DNA of 64,000 bases from Dictyostelium discoideum (taxonomy: Eukaryota), in NCBI GenBank assembly GCA_000004695.1, contig CM000154.2, positions 2,240,001 through 2,304,000 on the forward strand, written 5' to 3'. Shown in pieces: positions 3,747 to 25,446 of the stretch; position 1 is the first letter of the stretch; each line of letters opens with the position of its first letter. A model generated the notes under the pieces. It ran no database searches, was not told the DNA's origin, and was given only the letters and a program-made list of their open reading frames with translations. A program made the translations under genes and the position numbers.

Positions 3747-4502
3747 TCAGTTATTACTTGAAAAGATAACATCAGAAAGTGTAGCTAAACCAGACGTTGT
3801 TGGAACACTTCTTTCATCGTCTTCATTGGTTGTGTCATTTTTGATGATTTTCATTTCAGTATCAATTGATTGTGATTGTGATTGTGATTGTGGTTGTGAT
3901 GATGATGATAGATTTATGAATGATGATGATGAGGATGAACATGGTGTTGTAGTTGTGGAGGAGGACAAAGATGTTGATGGTGATTGGGTGTGTGGATTTA
4001 AAACCAAGGATATTCTTTCAATCTCTTTATTGATTTGAATAGAGATGATTTCTTTATCAGAAGTTAATGAATTCTCTTTAATAGTTTTTAAATTTTCAGT
4101 AATTTGTTTCAATTGTTCTTTAAGTTCTTTAATCTCTTTAACTTGATCATCATTATTATTATCTTTATTGTTTTTTGTGTTTACAGTTGACGATGATGAT
4201 GATGGATCATCAATTTCATCGATAATGGTTTCCATATTCGATAAAGGAGGTGTATTGGTATTACTACTATTGGATGATGATACTTCAGAGCTACCATTGG
4301 TTTGTTGTAGATGTTGAGATAAGGATGGTGTTGATGATAAGGATGATAAATTATTTAACAAATTTGTTGAGGATGAAGATGAAACTTTATGATTATTATT
4401 ATTATTATAATTATTATAATTATTATAATTATTATTATTATTATAATTATTATTATTATTATTATTATTTAAACCTCTTGGTGATGAAATGCCATTATGA
4501 TG

Positions 4503-4601
<99 letters not shown>

Positions 4602-6494
4602 ATTATTCATTCTTGGAGAAATAGGTGAATCCAAAGTGTTAGCATTTCCAATTAATGTATTTTGATTATTTGGTGAGAAAAATCCAGACATCATTGGGGT
4701 CATTGGAAGTGGTGGTATACTACCATTATTAATATTACTTTCAGTATGTGCTCTTTTTCTTTGACCAGTATGTCTTTGTTTATTATTGCCATTACCATTT
4801 GGTAATGATGATAACAAATTATTTGAAGAGAGTGAAGAAGTTTCTTTCATAATTTTTAATTGAGTTGTTAATTGATTAAAGTTTTCATGAATTTGTTTAT
4901 CGATTGAACTATGATACAAGATATTATTATTATTTGAGCTATTATTTAAACTATTATTAGTTGATGAAATTGGTGACGTTGTTAAAGAGTTAACATTACT
5001 ATTATTTGAGATATTTGGTAATTGTTGAGAAGGTGAATGAATACTATTATTTGAATTATTAAGTGAATGTGGTGTTGAAATTATATTAATTGGTGAAGTT
5101 GAAGTTGTTGTTGTGGTGGTTGTTGTTGTTGCTGTTGTTGTTGATGTTGTAGTATTATTATTATTATCATTAATTGGTGAATTAATTGGTGAAGAACCTA
5201 ATAATATTTCATCTTTTGAATCATCACTACTCATTTCTTCTTCAAGTGCAACACTTGTTAATTTTTTCATATTATCTTTAATTGGTGTGACATCAATAAT
5301 ATCTTTATCTTTATGATCTTTATGATCTTTATCCTTATGATCACGAGAAGTATTTGTAGAAGAAGATTTTGGAGAATGTAAAATATCACGTTGACTATAA
5401 CTATGAGTATCCTTTACAACACTTGATGAATCATTTTCGCTATAACTTCTTTTTCTTTTTGTAATGATTTTCTTTGCTTTAATTTCATCCCATGGATCAG
5501 AGATTTGTCTCATTCTCCAATAACCATTTTGTTTGTATTGTTCCATACCACTTTCAAATAAATTTTTACTATGACTTAACATATCTTGAATTTGTTTATG
5601 CCAATTATCCGATCTTTTCTTATCCAAACATAAAAGGTTCCAATGTGCAGTCATAAAACCATAAACATCAGTCTTTAAATTTAAAAATGGTTTTTGAGGC
5701 ATTTCCAATTGAAGACAAAAGAATACTATTTTCATTATGCATGCCCATGTTGGTGATTGACTATTTGCAAATGGACTACCACGTTTACAGAGAATACATT
5801 CTTTAAAAACGCATTGAACTGATGTTGATGGTGATGGCGATGACTCTTGATTACCTCCCATTGTTGGTGAATGAAGTCCAATTGGTAATCCCCATGTTGG
5901 TGATGAAATACTATTATTACTGTTATTATTACCATTACCACTTACACTACTACGTGGATAAACAGGAGTTGGTGGTGGAGGTGGTGGTGGTGATGATACA
6001 TTATTATTATTACTACTACTGTTGTTGCTGCTGCCGCTGCCGCTGCTGCTATCATTAAAATTACCATTTGAAATACACTCAAGTATTGATGAAGGCGAAG
6101 GAGGTTGGTGAGTTGGTATTGGTGAGGATGGTGTTGATGAGGAATTATTTTTCATTTCCAATAATATCTTATAAGAAAGTGAATCATGTTTTGGTGGTTT
6201 GGATATAGTTGGTGGTGATGTTGTTCTTGGTGATAATGTACCTGCTAATAAAGATGATGTGGAAGATGGACTACCACAAGTTAATTTCTTTATTGCTCCT
6301 TCTACATCTCTAACTGCGAGCATTAATGGGCTATTTGGTAATATTGCTGGTGTAGTTTTTGGTGTAGTTGTTATTATTGGTATTGGTGTAGAAGGTGTAG
6401 TTATTCCTGTTGTTGTTGTTTTTGTTGTTTTTGTTGTTGTTGTTGATATTATTGGATTTGTCTCTCCAGAAAATACTAAACTCTCCTTTAACAT
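3747..6494 (-). CDS. Asn/Thr/Ser-rich nuclear-type protein (915 aa) with a divergent forkhead-like winged-helix segment
   Basis: Single long minus ORF with ATG at 6492-6494. The forkhead-like segment is ...SPTWACIMKIVFFCLQLEMPQKPFLNLKTDVYGFMTAHWNLLCLDKKRSDNWHKQIQDMLSHSKNLFESGMEQYKQNGYWRMRQ.... It follows the forkhead pattern W-A..I....(L.L..IY.FM)....W.NSIRHNLS.SK.F.......G.YW.M, with IRHNLS diverged to IQDMLS. It is followed by a basic KRKR nuclear-localisation-like stretch. The rest is low complexity. Confidence 0.6.
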
Positions 6495-7764
6495 TTTTAA
6501 TTATATATGTATATATATATAAAATATGTTATTGAGTTGGTATTATTTGGGTTGAATTTTTTTTTTTTTTTTTTTTTTTTTTTGTTTTGTTTTGTCTTTG
6601 TTTCTGTTTTTGTTTTTGTTTTTGTGTGGCTATTTATTAATATGCTTCTCTATTTTTGAATTTTTTTTTTTTTTTTTTAAAAAAAAAAATATGATAAGTG
6701 ATCGGTTGTTTTTTTTTTTTTTTTTCTTATTATTTTAAAAAAAAAAAATTATATACAATGAATAAAAAAATGAATAAAAAAAATAAAAAAAATTAAAAAA
6801 TATGTTGGGGTTTTTTTTTTTTTTTTTTTATTTTTTATTATTATAATTATTATTATTATTTAAAAATAGAAAAAGAAAAAAAAATGAAAATGAAAATGAA
6901 AATGAAAATAAAAATAAAAAATAAAAATAGATTTTAAAATTAATTAAAAAAAATGAAAATAAAAAAAAAAAAAAAAGTGAAAATGGGAAAATGAAAAAAA
7001 AAAAAAAAATATATATATATATTAAATTGTTTTTATAAATATTTATAAAAACAATTGAGAGGATCTAGATGAAGTTAATAGTATAGGATTATTTAAACAA
7101 GGGACTACTTTTTTTTTGTGATGTAAATGTGATTATTATTTTTATTACTGTTATTATTATTTATTATTTTTGGTGTGGTGTGGATGATTTTTGGCTTTTT
7201 TTTTGTTTTTTTTTTTTTTTTTTGGGTTTTTTTTTTATTTTTTGTGATAATATAAAAAAAAAAAAATTAAATTAGAAAAAAAGAAAAAAATTAAAAAAAT
7301 TAAATAATAATAATATAATTATTTTTTATATATACAAGGATTATTATTATTTTAATTGGTGCCAAATTATTATTTAATCGAACGTTTTTTTTCTTTTTTT
7401 TTCTTTTTTTTTTTTTCTATTTTTTTTTATCTATGTTAATCTGTAAAAAAAATAAAAAATAAATAAAGAAAAAAAAAAGTTTTTTATTTATTATCAAGTT
7501 GATGAAATGACGAACGAAAAAAACAGAACGAACGAATGTAATATGTATTAATTTTGTGTGTTTTTGTTTTTGGTGTTTTTATTGGTTATTTTTTTTTAAA
7601 AAAAGATTTATTAGGTGTGTCGGATATAAAACTTTGTGAGGTGAGTGTTTTAGTTATTGTGTGTTGGTTGTTGTAGTTGAAAAAAGTAGTATTATATTTA
7701 AATAATATTTTAAAGAAATTGAATTCTGTGCCCTATAATAATTAATTTTCAGATAGAATAACTA

Positions 7765-7810
<46 letters not shown>

Positions 7811-8483
7811 TGTAAAAAAAAAAATGTTGGTGTTAATAGATCATTAAAAATATAAAACTCTTTTATGTACAAAAAAAGAGAAAAAAACAAAAATGAAAAA
7901 ATAAAAAAGAGAAGAAAAAAAAAAAAAAATAGATAAAGAAAAGAGAAAATTAAATTAAAAAAAAAAAAAAAAAAAAATGAGTGATAGTGAGTGTAGAAAT
8001 TGAATTAAATTAAAAAAAAAAAAAAAAAAAAATTTAAATTTTTTAGAGCGGTCGTTATTAAATTAAAAAAAAAAAAAATTAAAAAAATTAAAAAAATTTA
8101 AAAAAAATAAAAAAAAAAAAATAAATAAAAAAATAAATAAAAAAATAAATAAAAAAATGTTCAATTAACCTTTTTTTTTTTTTTTTTTTTTTTAATTAAA
8201 TTAATTGGGAAAAAAAAAAAAAAAAGTTTGATGTTATAACAATCATGGGACGAGGGTAATTAATTATGAGGAAACTAAATGGTTCCGTTCGTTTTTTAAA
8301 AAAAACAAAACAATTTAAAAAAAAAAAATTTTTAAAAAAAAAATTTTCATTTTTTTTTAATTTAATTTACATTATTTTTTTTTTTTTTTTTAAAAATTAT
8401 TCCCTATGGGGCCGGGGGGCTTATTTTTTTCAAAAACTCAAAAAATTTGGGCCCCAATGTTTTTTATTAAATAAAAAAAAAAA

Positions 8484-8527
<44 letters not shown>

Positions 8528-8850
8528 TTATTTCAAGAAAAAAACTTTCGTTCGGATAAAAACACAACCAAAATTTGTTTTGTTTTTCTGAGGATAAAAA
8601 ATAATTTCATTTCCTTTTTCTTTTTTTTTTTAATTTTATTTTTATTTTATTTTAATTTTTTTTTTTTTTTTATTATTTTTATTTATTTTATTTTTTTATT
8701 TTTTTTATCGCTTTGCCAGCCAATAAACAATAATCCAAAAAAAAAAGTAAATTTAATTCACTTTTTGATGTGGCTTTAATTTTTGGTTACTATCTGGCTT
8801 ATATTTATAATACCCACTCTTTTAGTGGAGTATAAAATATCTGTTTATAG

Positions 8851-8885
<35 letters not shown>

Positions 8886-8956
8886 TATTAAAGTGGAAAT
8901 GTTTTATTGGATGACTCAAATGTATATTTTAATTTTTATCCAACAATCAATAGATT

Positions 8957-8988
<32 letters not shown>

Positions 8989-9116
8989 ATACTTAATAAC
9001 TTTTTACCTCATATATTTTTTTTATTTTATTTTTTATTTTATTTTTTTATTTTATTTTTTTTTTTTTTATATATTAATCAAAGTTTAGCCATTAAAGGCA
9101 ACTGCTGCTGTTTTTA

Positions 9117-9148
<32 letters not shown>

Positions 9149-9184
9149 AATTTTAAAGTTGTTAATGAAATATTAATAATAATA

Positions 9185-9213
9185 TTGATTAATCAGAGTT
9201 TATTTATTAAAGG
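9185..9213. repeat. Copy 1 of a ~33-bp direct repeat (ttgattaatcagagtttatttattaaagg); copy 2 at 9445..9473 has one mismatch
   Basis: Two near-identical copies 260 bp apart in a long intergenic region. Each is preceded by aat(a/t). Confidence 0.7.
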
Positions 9214-9620
9214 AAATAAACAACAATAATTATTAATTTATTTTTGAATTTTAATTTTGGAATAAAACGCAATTATTATTAATTTTAATTTAAATTCTAA
9301 TAAAGAATTTTAATTTTAAAAATATAATACTGTATTATTTCTCGATAATAAGATTTAATTTAAAATATTTTTCTTTTTTTGATATATTCTAAAGTAGAGG
9401 CTAGTTTGAACGTCGAGTATTTTTTTTTTTTTTTTTTTTTAATTTTGATTAATCAGAGTTTATCTATTAAAGGGAACATATAAAAAATTGATTAATTTTT
9501 TTATTTTTTTTATTTTTAAAACATTGGTGTAATTTTATATACTAAAAAAAAAAGAGTTGGGATTTATTTGTTAAAGTCCAAAACTAAAAAAAATAAAAAA
9601 AAAAAAATAAAAGAGGGTTT

Positions 9621-9724
9621 ATTTGGTCAGATTTGTGCGAACACGGACGGTTAATTTCAAAGCCTACGAATGAACGCGAGCTCAACAGACGATCAGATAA
9701 TGTGCAACCAATCATCATTCAAAT
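9621..9724 (-). ncRNA. Box C/D snoRNA candidate (~104 nt)
   Basis: On the minus strand: 5'-ATTTG-aa-TGATGA (C box, AUGAUGA) - 15-nt guide - CTGA (D') - ... - 20-nt guide CCGTCCGTGTTCGCACAAAT - CTGA (D box) - c - CAAAT-3'. The 5-bp terminal stem ATTTG/CAAAT brackets the C and D boxes. The island has rare-codon-rich, non-coding GC content within AT-rich intergenic DNA. A DUSE-like element lies ~84 bp upstream on the same strand. Confidence 0.55.
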
Positions 9725-9807
9725 ATTACCCTTTACAAAAAATAAAAATGACAAATTTTCATTGTTTTTATTCATTTAAAAAACATCATTTTTTTTATTC
9801 ATTTTTT

Positions 9808-9815
9808 ATTATGGG
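9808..9815 (-). promoter_or_regulatory. DUSE-like element (ACCCATAA on the minus strand) upstream of the snoRNA candidate
   Basis: Plus-strand ttatgggt is the reverse complement of ACCCATAA, matching the Dictyostelium upstream sequence element consensus [A/T]CCCA[C/T]AA described ~60 nt upstream of ncRNA genes. Here it is ~84 nt upstream of the predicted terminal stem. Confidence 0.45.
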
Positions 9816-10571
9816 TCAAAAATTTTTTTAAAAAAAACGAAAAAAGTCATTTTTTTTTTTTTACTTTTTCCCCAAACACCGATATGGTTTTGGCAAAAAC
9901 ATATTCATTTAAAATTTATTTATAACTATTTAGAAAAAAAAAAAAAAAAAAAAAAATTATTCTTTCCAGTTTCCAAACAATTGTATAAGAGGAATGCATT
10001 AAGGGTATCATTCTGATGTCAAAGTCCAACAATATTCAGCTAGAAATATCTTTCAAAAATCTATTATCATTATAATCATTTCATTATTATTAATCTCAAA
10101 TATTTAAAATAAATAAAATAATAAGAAATTAGGTTTCACTCTTAAAGTTTTATTTTTAAAATTTTATTTATTATTAAAGTTTGCACTATGGAAATCTTTT
10201 TTGAGTATTAAATACATTAAAAGTTTTTTATTTTTAGATTACAATACCCATAAAGATTTAATTTTGTCATTCTGTTTTTTTTTTCTTTTTAAGGAAATTA
10301 AAAAACTCCTTTTTTTTTTTCTTTTTTATACACATTTATATAAAAAAAATAAAAAATAAAACATTAAAAAAAAAAAACTCGCGCCTTTTTTTCATAAAAA
10401 AAAAAAAAAAGTAAAAAAAAAAAAAAAAAGGAATTTTTTTTTTTTTCCAAAGTTGTTTTTTTTAAATATACATTTGCTCATTGAGCTATACACAATAATA
10501 ATAAAAATAAATAAATAAAATAAAAGTTGTAATAAATATTTAAATAAATATAAAAAAAAAAGATAAATAAA

Positions 10572-11309
10572 ATGTCAAGTGAAAATCTTCCACCAGATGT
10601 TATTAAAAGAGTAGTTAAAGAATTAAAAGAATTAAATTCGTCAACATTAGAAGGTATTACATTATTACCATGCGAAGAAGATATAACAAATATTGAAGCA
10701 GTAGTTACAGGACCAGCAGGAACACCATATGAAGGTGGTTATTTTAAAGCAAGATTAATTCTCTCTTCCGATTTCCCAAGATCACCACCAAAAGCAAACT
10801 TTATCACTAAAATATTTCATCCAAATGTTTCAAAAAAAGGTGAAATTTGTGTAAACACTTTAAAAAAAGATTGGACTGAAGATTTAGGTTTAAAACATAT
10901 TCTATTGGTAATGTATTATTTAATTTAATAATAATGAAAAAAAAAAAAAACTATTATTAATATTTTATTTATTATTTTTATTATTAAATATATATAGACA
11001 ATTAAGTGTTTATTAATTGTACCAAATGCTGAATCATCTTTAAACGAAGATGCATCAAGATTACTTTTAGAAAATTATGATGATTATTGTAAACATGCCA
11101 AATTATTTACATCAATTCATGCATCAAAACCAATCATTGATAGTAACAATAATAATGAAAATTCAACAACCACACCAACAACAACTACAACAGCAACTAC
11201 ACCATCAACAAACACAGCTTCTATTTCATCACCAGTTAAAAAGAAAACTGAAACTACAAATTCAACAACCACAAAAGTACAACCAAAGAAAAGTTTAAAA
11301 AGATTATAG
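10572..11309 (+). CDS. ube2s: Ubiquitin-conjugating enzyme E2 S (UBE2S family), 2 exons: 10572..10907 and 10998..11309, ~215 aa
   Basis: UBC fold with the HPN motif (FHPNV) and active-site Cys ([12 protein letters not shown]). After a GTAATG...TAG intron the frame continues [42 protein letters not shown], close to human UBE2S [43 protein letters not shown]. The C-terminal Lys/Thr-rich tail is typical of E2-S. Exon lengths are 336 and 312 nt, both in frame. Confidence 0.85.
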
Positions 11310-11613
11310 AGTGAATCATAATCATAACAACTTCAACATACTCTTTTAAGCATGTAACATAACAATTTAAAAAAAAAAAAAAAAAAAAAATGCACTCATT
11401 CATCACACAGAGAGAATATCGCTATGTTTGTTCAAGGTGTATTTTAAAAATTTAATAAAAAAAAAAAAAAAAAAAAACCAAAAAAAAAAAAAAAAAAAAA
11501 TAATTCCCAACACCTTCTCCTTTTTTTCTTTTTTTTTTTATTAACCAAAACAGTTTTATTTTTACACTTCAACCATTCAAGTTTTAAAAAAAAAAAATAA
11601 AAAAAAAAATAGA

Positions 11614-12834
11614 ATGATTTTAAACTATAACTATTTTAGAATTGAAAATAATAATAATAATAATAATAAATTTGAAGATTTAAATAAATTATTTTTTAAA
11701 ATATGGAGAAATTTAATAATTAGGAATGAAATTTTAGAAAATGTTAGAAAATTTAAAAGATTTGAAAAATTACCAAAGATATGTGTTAGTTCTTATTATA
11801 TAGAGAATGAAAATAGATATTTTTATAAAAGAGTATTAATTAATGGTAGCAGTAAAAAGGAAATAATTGAGAAATTATCATATCTACCTCATACAGTTGA
11901 AGAATTAACAATTGAATATAAAAGTATTGAAGACCTACCAACCTCAAAAATATCAAATACTACCTACTTCATTCCACCATTTATAACAACATTAATATTT
12001 GAAAATTCAATTCAAGATTCAAAGATTGCATTTAATTTCATACCACCAACCATTAAAAAATTAATATTACCAATATATTTTAATCAACCCTTAAGAAATA
12101 CAATTAATGAATCAATTTTCCCAATGAATTCAAGTTTAGAATCAATTGATTTCGGTGAGAGTTTTAATAAAAATCTATATGATTTACCAAAATCTTTAAA
12201 ACAAATTAAATTGTCAAAAGATTTCAACTTAAAATTAAATAAAAATTCAATACCAAAGAATGTAAAAGAAATTGAATTTGGTAGCAAATATTCAAAATTA
12301 ATAGCAAATAATGTGCTACCACCATGTGCAATTGTAAAAAAAGCGTATACAATTAATTACAGAATTCAGATTTATAAGGCCTATGAAAAAGTATTCATCC
12401 CGAATTGGACAAAATCTTTAATACTTGGTCCAAGATGTAATGTTGACCTTTTACCAAACTTGTACAATTTAAAAATTAATTACCTATCATTGAATTGTAA
12501 AGGGTATTCTGATCTATCAAATATTTCAAAATGTAATTCAATTAGGTATATTAAATTTGGTGAAAATTTCTCACAATCAATTTCAATCAATGATTTACCT
12601 CCAAAGTTAGTTTCATTATACTTTTCAAAATCATTTTACCAAACAATTACAAAATCAATGTTACCAAAAAATTTAAATTTTTTATATTTAAAATCTGATA
12701 ACATCGATATTGAATTCCCATTAAATATGAAATATTTAGCAATATTTATTTCAAAAAATAATAAATATATTATTAATAAAATTAATGAAGATCCAAATAT
12801 AATTAAAGAAAATAAAATTCATATAGTTTTATAA
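11614..12834 (+). CDS. FNIP-repeat-containing protein (406 aa)
   Basis: Repeated ~22-aa units of the Dictyostelium FNIP repeat type (e.g. YFNQPL..IPKNVKEIEFG, FGESFNKNLYDLPKSLKQIKL, FGENFSQSISINDLPPKLVSLYFS). Single exon with an ATG start. Confidence 0.75.
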   Translation: MILNYNYFRIENNNNNNNKFEDLNKLFFKIWRNLIIRNEILENVRKFKRFEKLPKICVSSYYIENENRYFYKRVLINGSSKKEIIEKLSYLPHTVEELTIEYKSIEDLPTSKISNTTYFIPPFITTLIFENSIQDSKIAFNFIPPTIKKLILPIYFNQPLRNTINESIFPMNSSLESIDFGESFNKNLYDLPKSLKQIKLSKDFNLKLNKNSIPKNVKEIEFGSKYSKLIANNVLPPCAIVKKAYTINYRIQIYKAYEKVFIPNWTKSLILGPRCNVDLLPNLYNLKINYLSLNCKGYSDLSNISKCNSIRYIKFGENFSQSISINDLPPKLVSLYFSKSFYQTITKSMLPKNLNFLYLKSDNIDIEFPLNMKYLAIFISKNNKYIINKINEDPNIIKENKIHIVL

Positions 12835-12901
12835 TAAAACTAATAATAAATAATAATTTTTGTTAGTTTTTTTTTTTTGTTTAAAAAAATTACTTTTTTA
12901 T

Positions 12902-13483
12902 TTAGTTTTCAGCGGTTTGTTGAGTGAATTCAAAGACAACTTCTTTACCAGTTAATTTGTGGTAGACAGCAGAGAAGGAGTCAACTTTAGAGATGTTTGA
13001 TAACATTTCTTTACGATCTAAGTAGATTTTGTGGAGTTTTGAACCATCTAATCTGTATCTTAAACGACGACCAACAATAGTGTTTGGGAATACTAAATCA
13101 TCGAGAATAGCATCGTGGACAGCTTTAATGGTACGGGAGATTGGTCTCTTTTGCATTTTAATCTTGTTGTTTGAGGCTGGCTTACGGATGATACGTCTTT
13201 GGGCAATGAACATAACTTGTTTACCACCGAGTTTCTTTTCAACTTCATAGGTTAATTTTTGTTGGATTTTGTTGTAGTTTTTGAGTTGACGGAATGGAAC
13301 AAAGATGACAACAGCTTTTTTGGATTCAGCAACATCGACTTCCTTGACTGAACAGACTGATAAATCTTTTAAGTCTTTTAATTCGGCGTTGTTGTTTTCC
13401 AAATCAACTAATGCTTGGGCAACAGTGTTTTCGAATTCAGTGGCAACTTTACCAGCTGGTTTGATGATTTTCTTGTTAAGCAT
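12902..13483 (-). CDS. rps7: 40S ribosomal protein S7e (193 aa)
   Basis: Full-length collinear match to eukaryotic RPS7 (..IIFVPFRQLKNYNKIQQKLTYEVEKKLGGKQVMFIAQRRII.., ..RTIKAVHDAILDDLVFPNTIVGRRLRYRLDGSKL.., YHKLTGKEVVFEF). High-expression codon usage. Confidence 0.9.
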   Translation of the reverse strand: MLNKKIIKPAGKVATEFENTVAQALVDLENNNAELKDLKDLSVCSVKEVDVAESKKAVVIFVPFRQLKNYNKIQQKLTYEVEKKLGGKQVMFIAQRRIIRKPASNNKIKMQKRPISRTIKAVHDAILDDLVFPNTIVGRRLRYRLDGSKLHKIYLDRKEMLSNISKVDSFSAVYHKLTGKEVVFEFTQQTAEN

Positions 13484-14040
13484 TTTGGTTGTCTATTTAA
13501 ATAATATAAATTAAATATAATTAATAATCTATATCTAATTATTGATAAATTTCATTCTGTAATTTCTTTGTCTCTTTAATATATATTATCTCTCCTCTCT
13601 ATTATCTCTAATATATCTATTGTCTATCATATGTATTGTATCCAATCTATATCCAATCTATATTCAATCCATATTGTATATCAACTATCTATTATTATAT
13701 TGAGGATTTGAGATATTTATTCATCAATCCAATATCATAGCTTTGATATTATTTTTTATTATTGTCATATCTAGTATCCACATACCAAAGGTCTAAAGTT
13801 AAGGCTAAAAAGGGAGAATTATATTATCAAAAACGTTTTTGTGAGTCACGCAAAAAAAAAAAAAAATTTTCAAAAATTTTATTCAAAAAATTGAAAATTT
13901 TTTAGTTGAAATTTTTATATGAGTTGTTACTGATATAATTATTTTTTTTTTGGCCAGCCGTTTAAGAGAAAAGTGTAAAAATTTTAATTTAAAAAAAAAA
14001 AAAAAACAATAATATTAATTATACATTATATTATCAATTA

Positions 14041-25373: not shown

Positions 25374-25446
25374 GGGGATGTAGCTCAGATGGTAGAGCGC
25401 TCGCTTAGCATGCGAGAGGTAAAGGGATCGATACCCTTCTTCTCCA
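25374..25446 (+). tRNA. tRNA-Ala (anticodon AGC)
   Basis: GGGGATGTAGCTCAGATGGTAGAGCGCTCGCTTAGCATGCGAGAGGTAAAGGGATCGATACCCTTCTTCTCCA. A box is TAGCTCAGATGG, anticodon loop TTAGCAT (AGC), and the Ala identity pair G3:U70 is present. B-box-like GGGATCGATACCC. A T8 Pol III terminator follows. One U6-U67 mismatch in the acceptor stem and A54 in the T-loop are atypical. Confidence 0.8.

Follow-up and report, generated by a model that had tools for sequence, protein, structure and literature searches.

The RNA gene and its setting

The window analysed here, a stretch of 64,000 nt of Dictyostelium discoideum DNA, contains an intergenic region of 4077 bp between two long open reading frames, one of which ends at 6494 and the other begins at 10572. 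This agrees with the 4.1-kb intergenic setting recorded in the first-pass annotation. The gene that starts at 10572 codes for a UBE2S-like ubiquitin-conjugating enzyme. Within the intergenic region there is a GC island, in which 50-nt windows reach up to 50% GC versus 10–20% around it, and the minus strand of this segment reads GGGTAATATTTG-A-ATGATGA ... CTGA-C-CAAATAAACCC. The C box AUGAUGA (9712..9718) and the D box CUGA (9627..9630, 1 nt ahead of the 3' half of the terminal stem) occupy nucleotides 4–10 and 92–95 of a 98-nt RNA, so that an RUGAUGA motif is found near its 5' end and a CUGA motif near its 3' end. Both boxes and the terminal stem lie at the minus-strand positions where they had been placed before.

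We scanned the whole window against Rfam at the gathering thresholds. Two matches were returned, namely RF01575 (DdR7) and a tRNA at 25374-25446. The RF01575 match covers 9721..9624 on the minus strand with 123.9 bits (E = 2.1 × 10−21), and the curated gathering threshold of this family is 80 bits. The alignment extends over model positions 1-98 of 98, is not truncated, and shows no deviation from the consensus at any position. The Rfam title of the family is "Dictyostelium snoRNA Dd7". When a permissive scan was applied to 6000-14000, DdR7 alone was matched and nothing else. Thus, the Infernal/Rfam check that the first-pass annotation had proposed gave a full-length match far above the threshold, and the annotation had rightly recognised a minus-strand box C/D snoRNA gene. 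DdR-7 was reportedly described by Aspegren et al. in 2004 as a D. discoideum box C/D snoRNA. The minus-strand segment 9721..9624 is this box C/D snoRNA gene, DdR-7 or CD7, which has already been published.

Diesend et al. renamed the DdR box C/D RNAs with an rRNA target as CDx in 2022 (PMC8817022). Their Table S5 gives CD7 as chr5:2249625-2249721 on the minus strand, with a length of 97 nt and a GC content of 44.33% (PMC8817022). These coordinates equal 9625-9721 of the window at an offset of exactly 2,240,000, and both the length and the GC content agree with the window sequence. The window would accordingly correspond to chr5:2240001-2304000. Table S4 of the same paper lists a C box AUGAUGA, a D box CUGA, a C-D gap of 81 nt and a snoScan terminal stem of 6 bp, marked 'Yes' and "likely formed" (PMC8817022); the boxes, the stem length and the gap were all reproduced in the window sequence. 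The CD7 oligo used for primer extension, ATTTGTGCGAACACGGA (PMC8817022), is the reverse complement of 9647-9631, the D-guide segment. CD7 has an RNA-seq expression score of 15, belongs to the 47 validated snoRNAs, and passed an RNA-seq filter for which an RNA needed more than 100 reads as well as a distinct 5' end (PMC8817022).

The locus is therefore the same as that of DdR-7/CD7 (PMC8817022), as sequence, coordinates, strand, length and GC content all match. The C/D boxes, the stem length, the probe and the targets match likewise, and the RNA itself shows no difference. The literature (2004, 2022) and Rfam already cover the gene, how it is expressed and which two rRNA positions it targets, so that the finding is correct and not new. 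The word "unannotated" used by the first-pass annotation has to be dropped, since RF01575 DdR7/CD7 has published coordinates, a probe, RNA-seq support and targets. For RNA biology nothing new follows, because the gene, its expression and its targets were already known. That a genuine snoRNA gene was recognised from raw sequence nevertheless validates this kind of reading.

The first exon of the UBE2S-like gene led to its Dictyostelium citrinum orthologue (95% identity), which lies on a 4.7-Mb contig (locus L119). A DdR7 orthologue is present at L119 8783-8879 and scores 115.6 bits against RF01575. Its sequence differs from that of D. discoideum only by the loss of A21 and by C73U, both outside the boxes and the guide duplexes. 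Other searches were negative within their scope. A metagenome scan with the pattern TGATGAN{8,20}TATCTGATCGTCT gave 116 loci, none of them DdR7-like beyond the 14–17 nt that the pattern specifies. Synteny via a neighbour of 915 aa gave three short matches, an Rfam scan of contigs L117 and L118 found no DdR7, and L117, inspected directly, has 45% GC and lacks the 17S guide motif.

It could be argued that short box motifs had come together by chance in a patch of higher GC content where there is no gene. The motifs of boxes C and D and of the stem are indeed short, and the fold as a whole is not better than that of shuffled sequences. However, the full-length covariance-model match (E = 2 × 10−21) stands against this explanation, as do the published cloning, RNA-seq, probe and coordinates. 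The mature RNA is also 98% conserved in D. citrinum, compared with a background of about 70%. The probability of a chance origin is close to nil, and we consider chance co-occurrence of the motifs to be refuted by the Rfam match, the published coordinates and the D. citrinum orthologue.

Guide elements and rRNA targets

Diesend et al. have mapped 49 high-confidence 2'-O-methyl sites by RiboMeth-seq, including 17S-Cm991 and 26S-Gm711, and CD7 is the sole guide that they assigned to these two (PMC8817022). According to their Table S7, box D directs 26S G711 and box D' directs 17S C991; neither position is matched by a methylated one in yeast, human or Arabidopsis (PMC8817022). The published D' duplex consists of snoRNA 5'-UUAUCUGAUCGUCUG-3', followed by UUGA, and 17S 5'-AAGACGAUCAGAUAC-3' (PMC8817022, Fig. 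S6).

We recomputed both duplexes with the rRNA fragments of Figs S5 and S6 of PMC8817022. The D' antisense element UAUCUGAUCGUCU (9687..9699 on the minus strand, RNA nt 23–35; also in Fig. S6) forms 13 contiguous Watson-Crick pairs with 17S 5'-AGACGAUCAGAUA-3', and C991 lies at +5 of the D' box UUGA (9682..9685, RNA nt 37–40, as in the same figure). The D antisense element UCGCACAAAU (9631..9640, RNA nt 82–91; also in Fig. S5) forms a duplex of about 10 bp with 26S, in which G711 is opposite C87 at +5. The order of pairs in the latter is G-U, four Watson-Crick, A/C at +6, Watson-Crick, G-U, Watson-Crick and G-U, that is, six Watson-Crick pairs, three G-U pairs and one A/C. The A/C pair was flagged by Diesend et al. 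themselves, and the G711 duplex comes close to last in their figure, which is sorted by stability, as one of the least stable published (PMC8817022). For this reason, the assignment to 26S-G711 carries less weight than that to 17S.

Judged from the published sites and the recomputed duplexes, DdR-7/CD7 is very probably a methylation guide for 17S-C991 and 26S-G711. The first-pass annotation had located the D-box guide where it is now found and had made the snoRNA call depend on rRNA complementarity; both guides do have published rRNA targets. In mechanistic terms, the terminal C/D pair (AUGAUGA/CUGA) would form a k-turn for snoRNP assembly. The element ahead of the degenerate D' box UUGA would then pair with 17S and set C991 at +5, and the element ahead of box D would pair more weakly with 26S and set G711 at +5.

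The position of the D' box needs closer consideration. An internal CUGA is found at 9696-9693 (RNA nt 26–29), 15 nt past the C box, and the first-pass annotation took it as D' with UUGGUUGCACAUUAU as its guide. If this were so, UUGGUUGCACAUUAU would guide methylation of an rRNA or snRNA uridine, and AUAAUGUGCAACCAA would pair with a target bearing a methylated U at the fifth position. The CUGA is a perfect D-box consensus, which UUGA is not, and a spacing of 15 nt from the C box is typical. However, several observations speak against it. The +5 nucleotide in this register is A21, so the target must be U, but each mapped Um site already has another guide, and the three unassigned methylation sites are A, A and G (PMC8817022). 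The internal CUGA is itself wholly base-paired in the 13-bp 17S duplex that sets methylated C991 at +5 of UUGA. Among the published 17S and 26S target fragments, the best pairing that could be obtained in the CUGA register was 3 bp. D. citrinum has lost exactly A21, the +5 nucleotide of this register, and kept the UUGA guide intact. Finally, the D' boxes of Dictyostelium are generally degenerate (PMC8817022). We therefore consider a D' role of the internal CUGA very improbable. The published D' box, UUGA, lies 11 nt further on, the internal CUGA falls inside the true D' guide, and the functional pair of the published mapping is UAUCUGAUCGUCU with UUGA rather than the proposed UUGGUUGCACAUUAU.

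Between the D' box and a putative C' box, the folds of both species predict an internal hairpin (9660..9683, RNA nt 39–62), which carries no substitutions in D. citrinum. It is followed by UGAAAU (9654..9659, RNA nt 63–68), which from its motif position is a possible degenerate C' box. This suggestion is ours, as PMC8817022 shows no C' boxes; C' and D' boxes are poorly conserved in Dictyostelium (PMC8817022).

A similar organisation exists in the dual-guide RNAs CD1, CD19 and CD25 (PMC8817022). Like CD7, they have D and D' guides, one for 17S and one for 26S, and combine a degenerate D' box with a canonical D box. The targets of CD25 are conserved (PMC8817022), whereas neither of the two CD7 targets is matched by a methylated position in yeast, human or Arabidopsis.

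Predicted precursor stem and its probable processing

The flanks of the mature RNA were predicted to pair with each other in both MFE and centroid folds. The 5' leader (9722..9732 on the minus strand) provides an outer stem half at 9732-9728 and an inner one at 9725-9720, the latter running into the mature RNA. The 3' stem halves (9614..9625) are at 9625-9620 (inner) and 9618-9614 (outer). In the fold of 9760..9600, the inner helix has 6 bp (TATTTG/CAAATA) and the outer helix has 4–5 bp, with a small internal loop between them. The 5-bp terminal stem of the first-pass annotation (ATTTG at 9724-9720 with CAAAT at 9625-9621) is thus present at that place, but the pairing is longer than was stated, with an inner helix of 6 bp and an outer one of 4–5 bp.

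The mature RNA spans 9624..9721 on the minus strand and has 98 nt in Rfam, or 97 nt as published (9721..9625). Of the six inner-stem pairs, only the final two or three remain within these ends (9721 and 9625/9624). Most stem pairs are located in the flanks, and therefore the stem is a feature of the precursor. The earlier length of about 104 nt was too long: the mature RNA has only 97–98 nt (9721..9625/9624), and most of the stem lies outside it.

The two-part stem was predicted in the D. citrinum precursor as well as in that of D. discoideum, despite indels in the loop between the helices. It is conserved across the two species and shows no compensatory change. The fold of the whole RNA has no extra stability over shuffled sequences in either species (z = 0.03 in D. 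discoideum and 0.61 in D. citrinum). Fold stability equal to that of shuffles is normal for box C/D RNAs and does not by itself lend support to the structure.

Diesend et al. suggested that, for some Dictyostelium snoRNAs, flanking complementary stretches probably act in the precursors and are later removed (PMC8817022). In DdR-7/CD7, the flanks may pair as a two-part stem (6 bp plus 4–5 bp) and join boxes C and D for the loading of core proteins, after which exonucleases would remove the flanks on either side up to the snoRNP boundary. Vertebrate box C/D snoRNAs with a flank-supplied terminal stem can likewise pair outside their mature ends in the precursor, and these sequences are then removed (refs 84 and 85 in PMC8817022). 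However, those snoRNAs are mostly intronic, whereas DdR-7/CD7 lies between genes and seems to be transcribed from a promoter of its own. The extended stem of the precursor, with its two parts, is absent from the descriptions in the literature covered, PMC8817022 included, and it may be regarded as a modest addition.

The upstream DUSE and the orientation of the module

A DUSE octamer, ACCCATAA, is located at 9809..9816 on the minus strand, the strand of the snoRNA. It matches [AT]CCCA[AT]AA exactly and occupies −95 to −88 relative to the mature 5' end; its distance to 9724 is 84 nt, and that to the mature end (9721) is 87 nt. The first-pass annotation had already pointed to a DUSE-like match upstream on the same strand; the match at 9816-9809 proved to be exact and to be conserved in D. 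citrinum. The DUSE consensus [AT]CCCA[AT]AA occurs about 60–63 nt before the start of many Dictyostelium ncRNA genes (PMC3188802, PMC7919456). If this rule of about 60–63 nt holds here, transcription would start near 9749-9753. The spacing of 87 nt from the DUSE up to the mature end fits the rule of about 60 nt only if a leader of about 25–30 nt is trimmed.

In D. citrinum, the identical octamer is found at 8686-8693 of L119, 89 nt before the RNA, compared with 87 nt in D. discoideum. We aligned 9575-9845 of the window with 8931-8664 of this locus and found 82.7% identity in reverse orientation. The flanking genes and 6516-8865 of the window are colinear between the species at about 72–88% identity (about 72% for 6516-8865, masked blastn). 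As the module is reversed and its flanks are colinear, a module of about 270 bp has therefore changed its orientation between the two species. A retroelement was considered as the cause of the inversion and rejected, as no retroelement ORF was found next to the D. citrinum module.

The identity to D. citrinum varies strongly along the module. Upstream of the DUSE block it is 41%, and it rises to 100% in a 21-nt block, TTTTTGACCCATAATAAAAAA (9802..9822 on the minus strand), which contains the octamer. The AT-rich spacer from this block to the precursor stem (9733..9801) has 68%, the 5' stem half 91%, the mature RNA 98%, the 3' stem half 73%, and the trailer beyond the stem 57%. The intergenic background identity is about 72%. 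An identical run of 21 nt at a background identity of about 70% is unusual, not extreme.

Does the octamer belong to the snoRNA gene? The snoRNA could be real and the upstream ACCCATAA fortuitous or unrelated, with transcription from another AT-rich promoter or processing from a longer transcript. The octamer occurs 15 times in the 64-kb window, with no excess over the 22 expected from shuffles, and its distance to the mature 5' end is about 90 nt and not about 60. Class I genes with a distal DUSE carry a TGTG box about 60 nt downstream of it (PMC7919456, PMC3188802), but no TGTG box AAATGTG was found between 9808 and 9722, and the absence of this box also fits a fortuitous motif. The Class I motif CTTACAGC was not found anywhere in the window. 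In addition, snoRNAs are missing from the DUSE genes listed in the literature covered, PMC3188802 and PMC7919456 included. D. citrinum is also too closely related for conservation to decide the matter.

However, the prior probability of a same-strand octamer within 150 nt upstream is only about 1.7%. The octamer sits in a 21-nt island of full identity that is edged by 41% and 68%, and it has moved with the RNA gene through the change of orientation, with its distance kept within 2 nt. The rule of about 60 nt would moreover place the start immediately ahead of the stem half in the leader, which is conserved. A fortuitous octamer thus seems rather unlikely to us. The comparison, made with one close relative, supports but does not prove that the DUSE ACCCATAA belongs to the DdR-7/CD7 gene and drives it, and likewise that a precursor begins about 60 nt past the DUSE.

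Regarded in this way, DdR-7 resembles the DUSE-dependent snRNA, Class I and Class II genes, as the same octamer precedes a small ncRNA on its coding strand and, as with DUSE-dependent ncRNA genes, is kept in a second Group 4 species. Two differences exist. The octamer of DUSE-dependent genes is about 60–63 nt from the start, whereas that of DdR-7 is separated from the mature end by 88–95 nt. DdR-7 also lacks the TGTG box that accompanies a distal DUSE in Class I genes.

We infer that the gene would form a monocistronic unit of its own, about 270 bp long. The DUSE, which precedes the mature 5' end by 87 nt, probably directs its transcription, which may begin about 60 nt past the DUSE and give a precursor with a leader of about 25–30 nt and a short trailer. 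The explanation as a whole, in which the DdR-7/CD7 gene encodes a dual rRNA guide and is presumably a DUSE-driven monocistronic unit with a trimmed precursor, is in our judgement very probable.

A more far-reaching reading can be offered only tentatively, as it may well be mistaken: DdR-7/CD7 would be a self-contained, DUSE-driven unit of about 270 bp, whose structured leader is trimmed and which has been flipped relative to D. citrinum with its neighbours unmoved. If true, DUSE-dependent transcription would extend to methylation-guide snoRNAs, and the locus would provide a concrete example of small-RNA gene modules that rearrange as units in dictyostelid genomes.

For specialists in Dictyostelium ncRNA promoters and snoRNA processing, the analysis makes modest additions: UUGA is the correct D' box, the DUSE lies in a conserved island whose distance is non-canonical, the two-part stem of the precursor is conserved, and the module is inverted in D. 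citrinum. The position of the DUSE near −90 and the inversion are absent from the descriptions in the literature covered and are small additions.

On the other side of the gene, a T-rich trailer (T4, A, T13, A, T8; 9586..9612 on the minus strand) begins 13 nt past the mature 3' end. This trailer could act as a termination signal, though T runs are ubiquitous in this genome. A comparable T-rich trailer is present in D. citrinum.

Neighbouring genes and DUSE-like octamers

The neighbours of the box C/D snoRNA DdR7 showed the same gene order in D. citrinum. On one side lies a gene for a low-complexity protein of 915 aa that lacks any Pfam domain (window 3747-6494, minus strand). On the other side, the first exon of a UBE2S-like E2 enzyme gene (window 10572-10928, plus strand) is followed by genes for a FNIP-repeat protein (window 11614-12834, plus strand) and ribosomal protein S7e (window 12902-13483, minus strand), and a more distant tRNA gene was found at window 25374-25446 (plus strand).

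We found a second DUSE-like octamer, ACCCATAA, at window 10246-10253 (plus strand), 430 bp from the upstream element (DUSE) of the snoRNA and on the opposite strand. It was aligned to TCCCAAAA in L119, the D. citrinum locus with the DdR7 orthologue (9642-9649, plus strand), in the shared context CACAAT[A/T]CCCA[T/A]AAAGAT. The two octamers differ by only two substitutions, both at degenerate positions of the DUSE consensus. The ATG of the E2 gene is located 326 nt downstream of the octamer, and only AT-rich sequence lies between them.

Another octamer, ACCCAAAA, is located inside a long poly-A run at window 7220-7227 (minus strand). The 300 bp around it (window 6988-7287) showed 81.7% identity to L119 4620-4929, and the same octamer is kept there at 4876 (minus strand). 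No RNA-gene-like sequence was found downstream of it, and the ATG of the 915-aa gene follows after about 730 nt. The conserved stretch may be a promoter, a 5' UTR or an upstream exon of that gene.

GC-richer islands and a U6-like sequence

The 4.1-kb intergenic region that contains DdR7 also has four small GC-richer islands (window 7605-7690, 8240-8295, 8385-8465 and 9960-10045), with a GC content of 34-44% in 50-nt windows. None of the four had an Rfam match at E <= 1. The first three lie inside window 6824-8865, which is colinear with D. citrinum at 72%.

A sequence resembling U6 snRNA was found in D. citrinum (L119 8963-9066, plus strand), on the strand of the DdR7 orthologue and 84 nt downstream of it. 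Its score of 40.4 bits is slightly under the gathering score of 44. The sequence includes ACAGAGAAGATTAGCAT, and a poly-A run comes after it. By eye, the U6 5' stem-loop was not recognisable; no counterpart was found in the D. discoideum window, and no retroelement ORF was found nearby. It may be a retropseudogene.

Target of the D guide and other possible pairings

Diesend et al. (2022; PMC8817022) give the large-subunit target of DdR7, which they call CD7, as 26S-Am711 in Table S5 but as G711 in Table 1, Table S7 and Fig. S5. The D duplex computed on the window sequence has a G opposite +5. Thus, Am711 in Table S5 is apparently a typo.

Upstream of the D guide, DdR7 contains GUCCGUGUU (window 9648-9640, RNA nt 74-82), which, read by eye, would form eight Watson-Crick pairs and one G-U pair with 26S AACACGGAU. 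The latter adjoins Am844 (Fig. S6, PMC8817022). This complementarity is probably due to chance, though it could be an accessory pairing.

Two metagenome contigs have box C/D-like units that are unrelated to DdR7 and carry the same 18S-complementary guide. The unit in L069 (near 3265, minus strand, about 85 nt) has CTGATGA, 11 nt, TTATCTGATCGTCT, CTGA and, after an interval, a further CTGA; the unit in L025 (2314, plus strand) has GTGATGA, 8 nt and TTATCTGATCGTCTG. The equivalent 18S position, or one adjoining it, may be guided for modification in other eukaryotes too.
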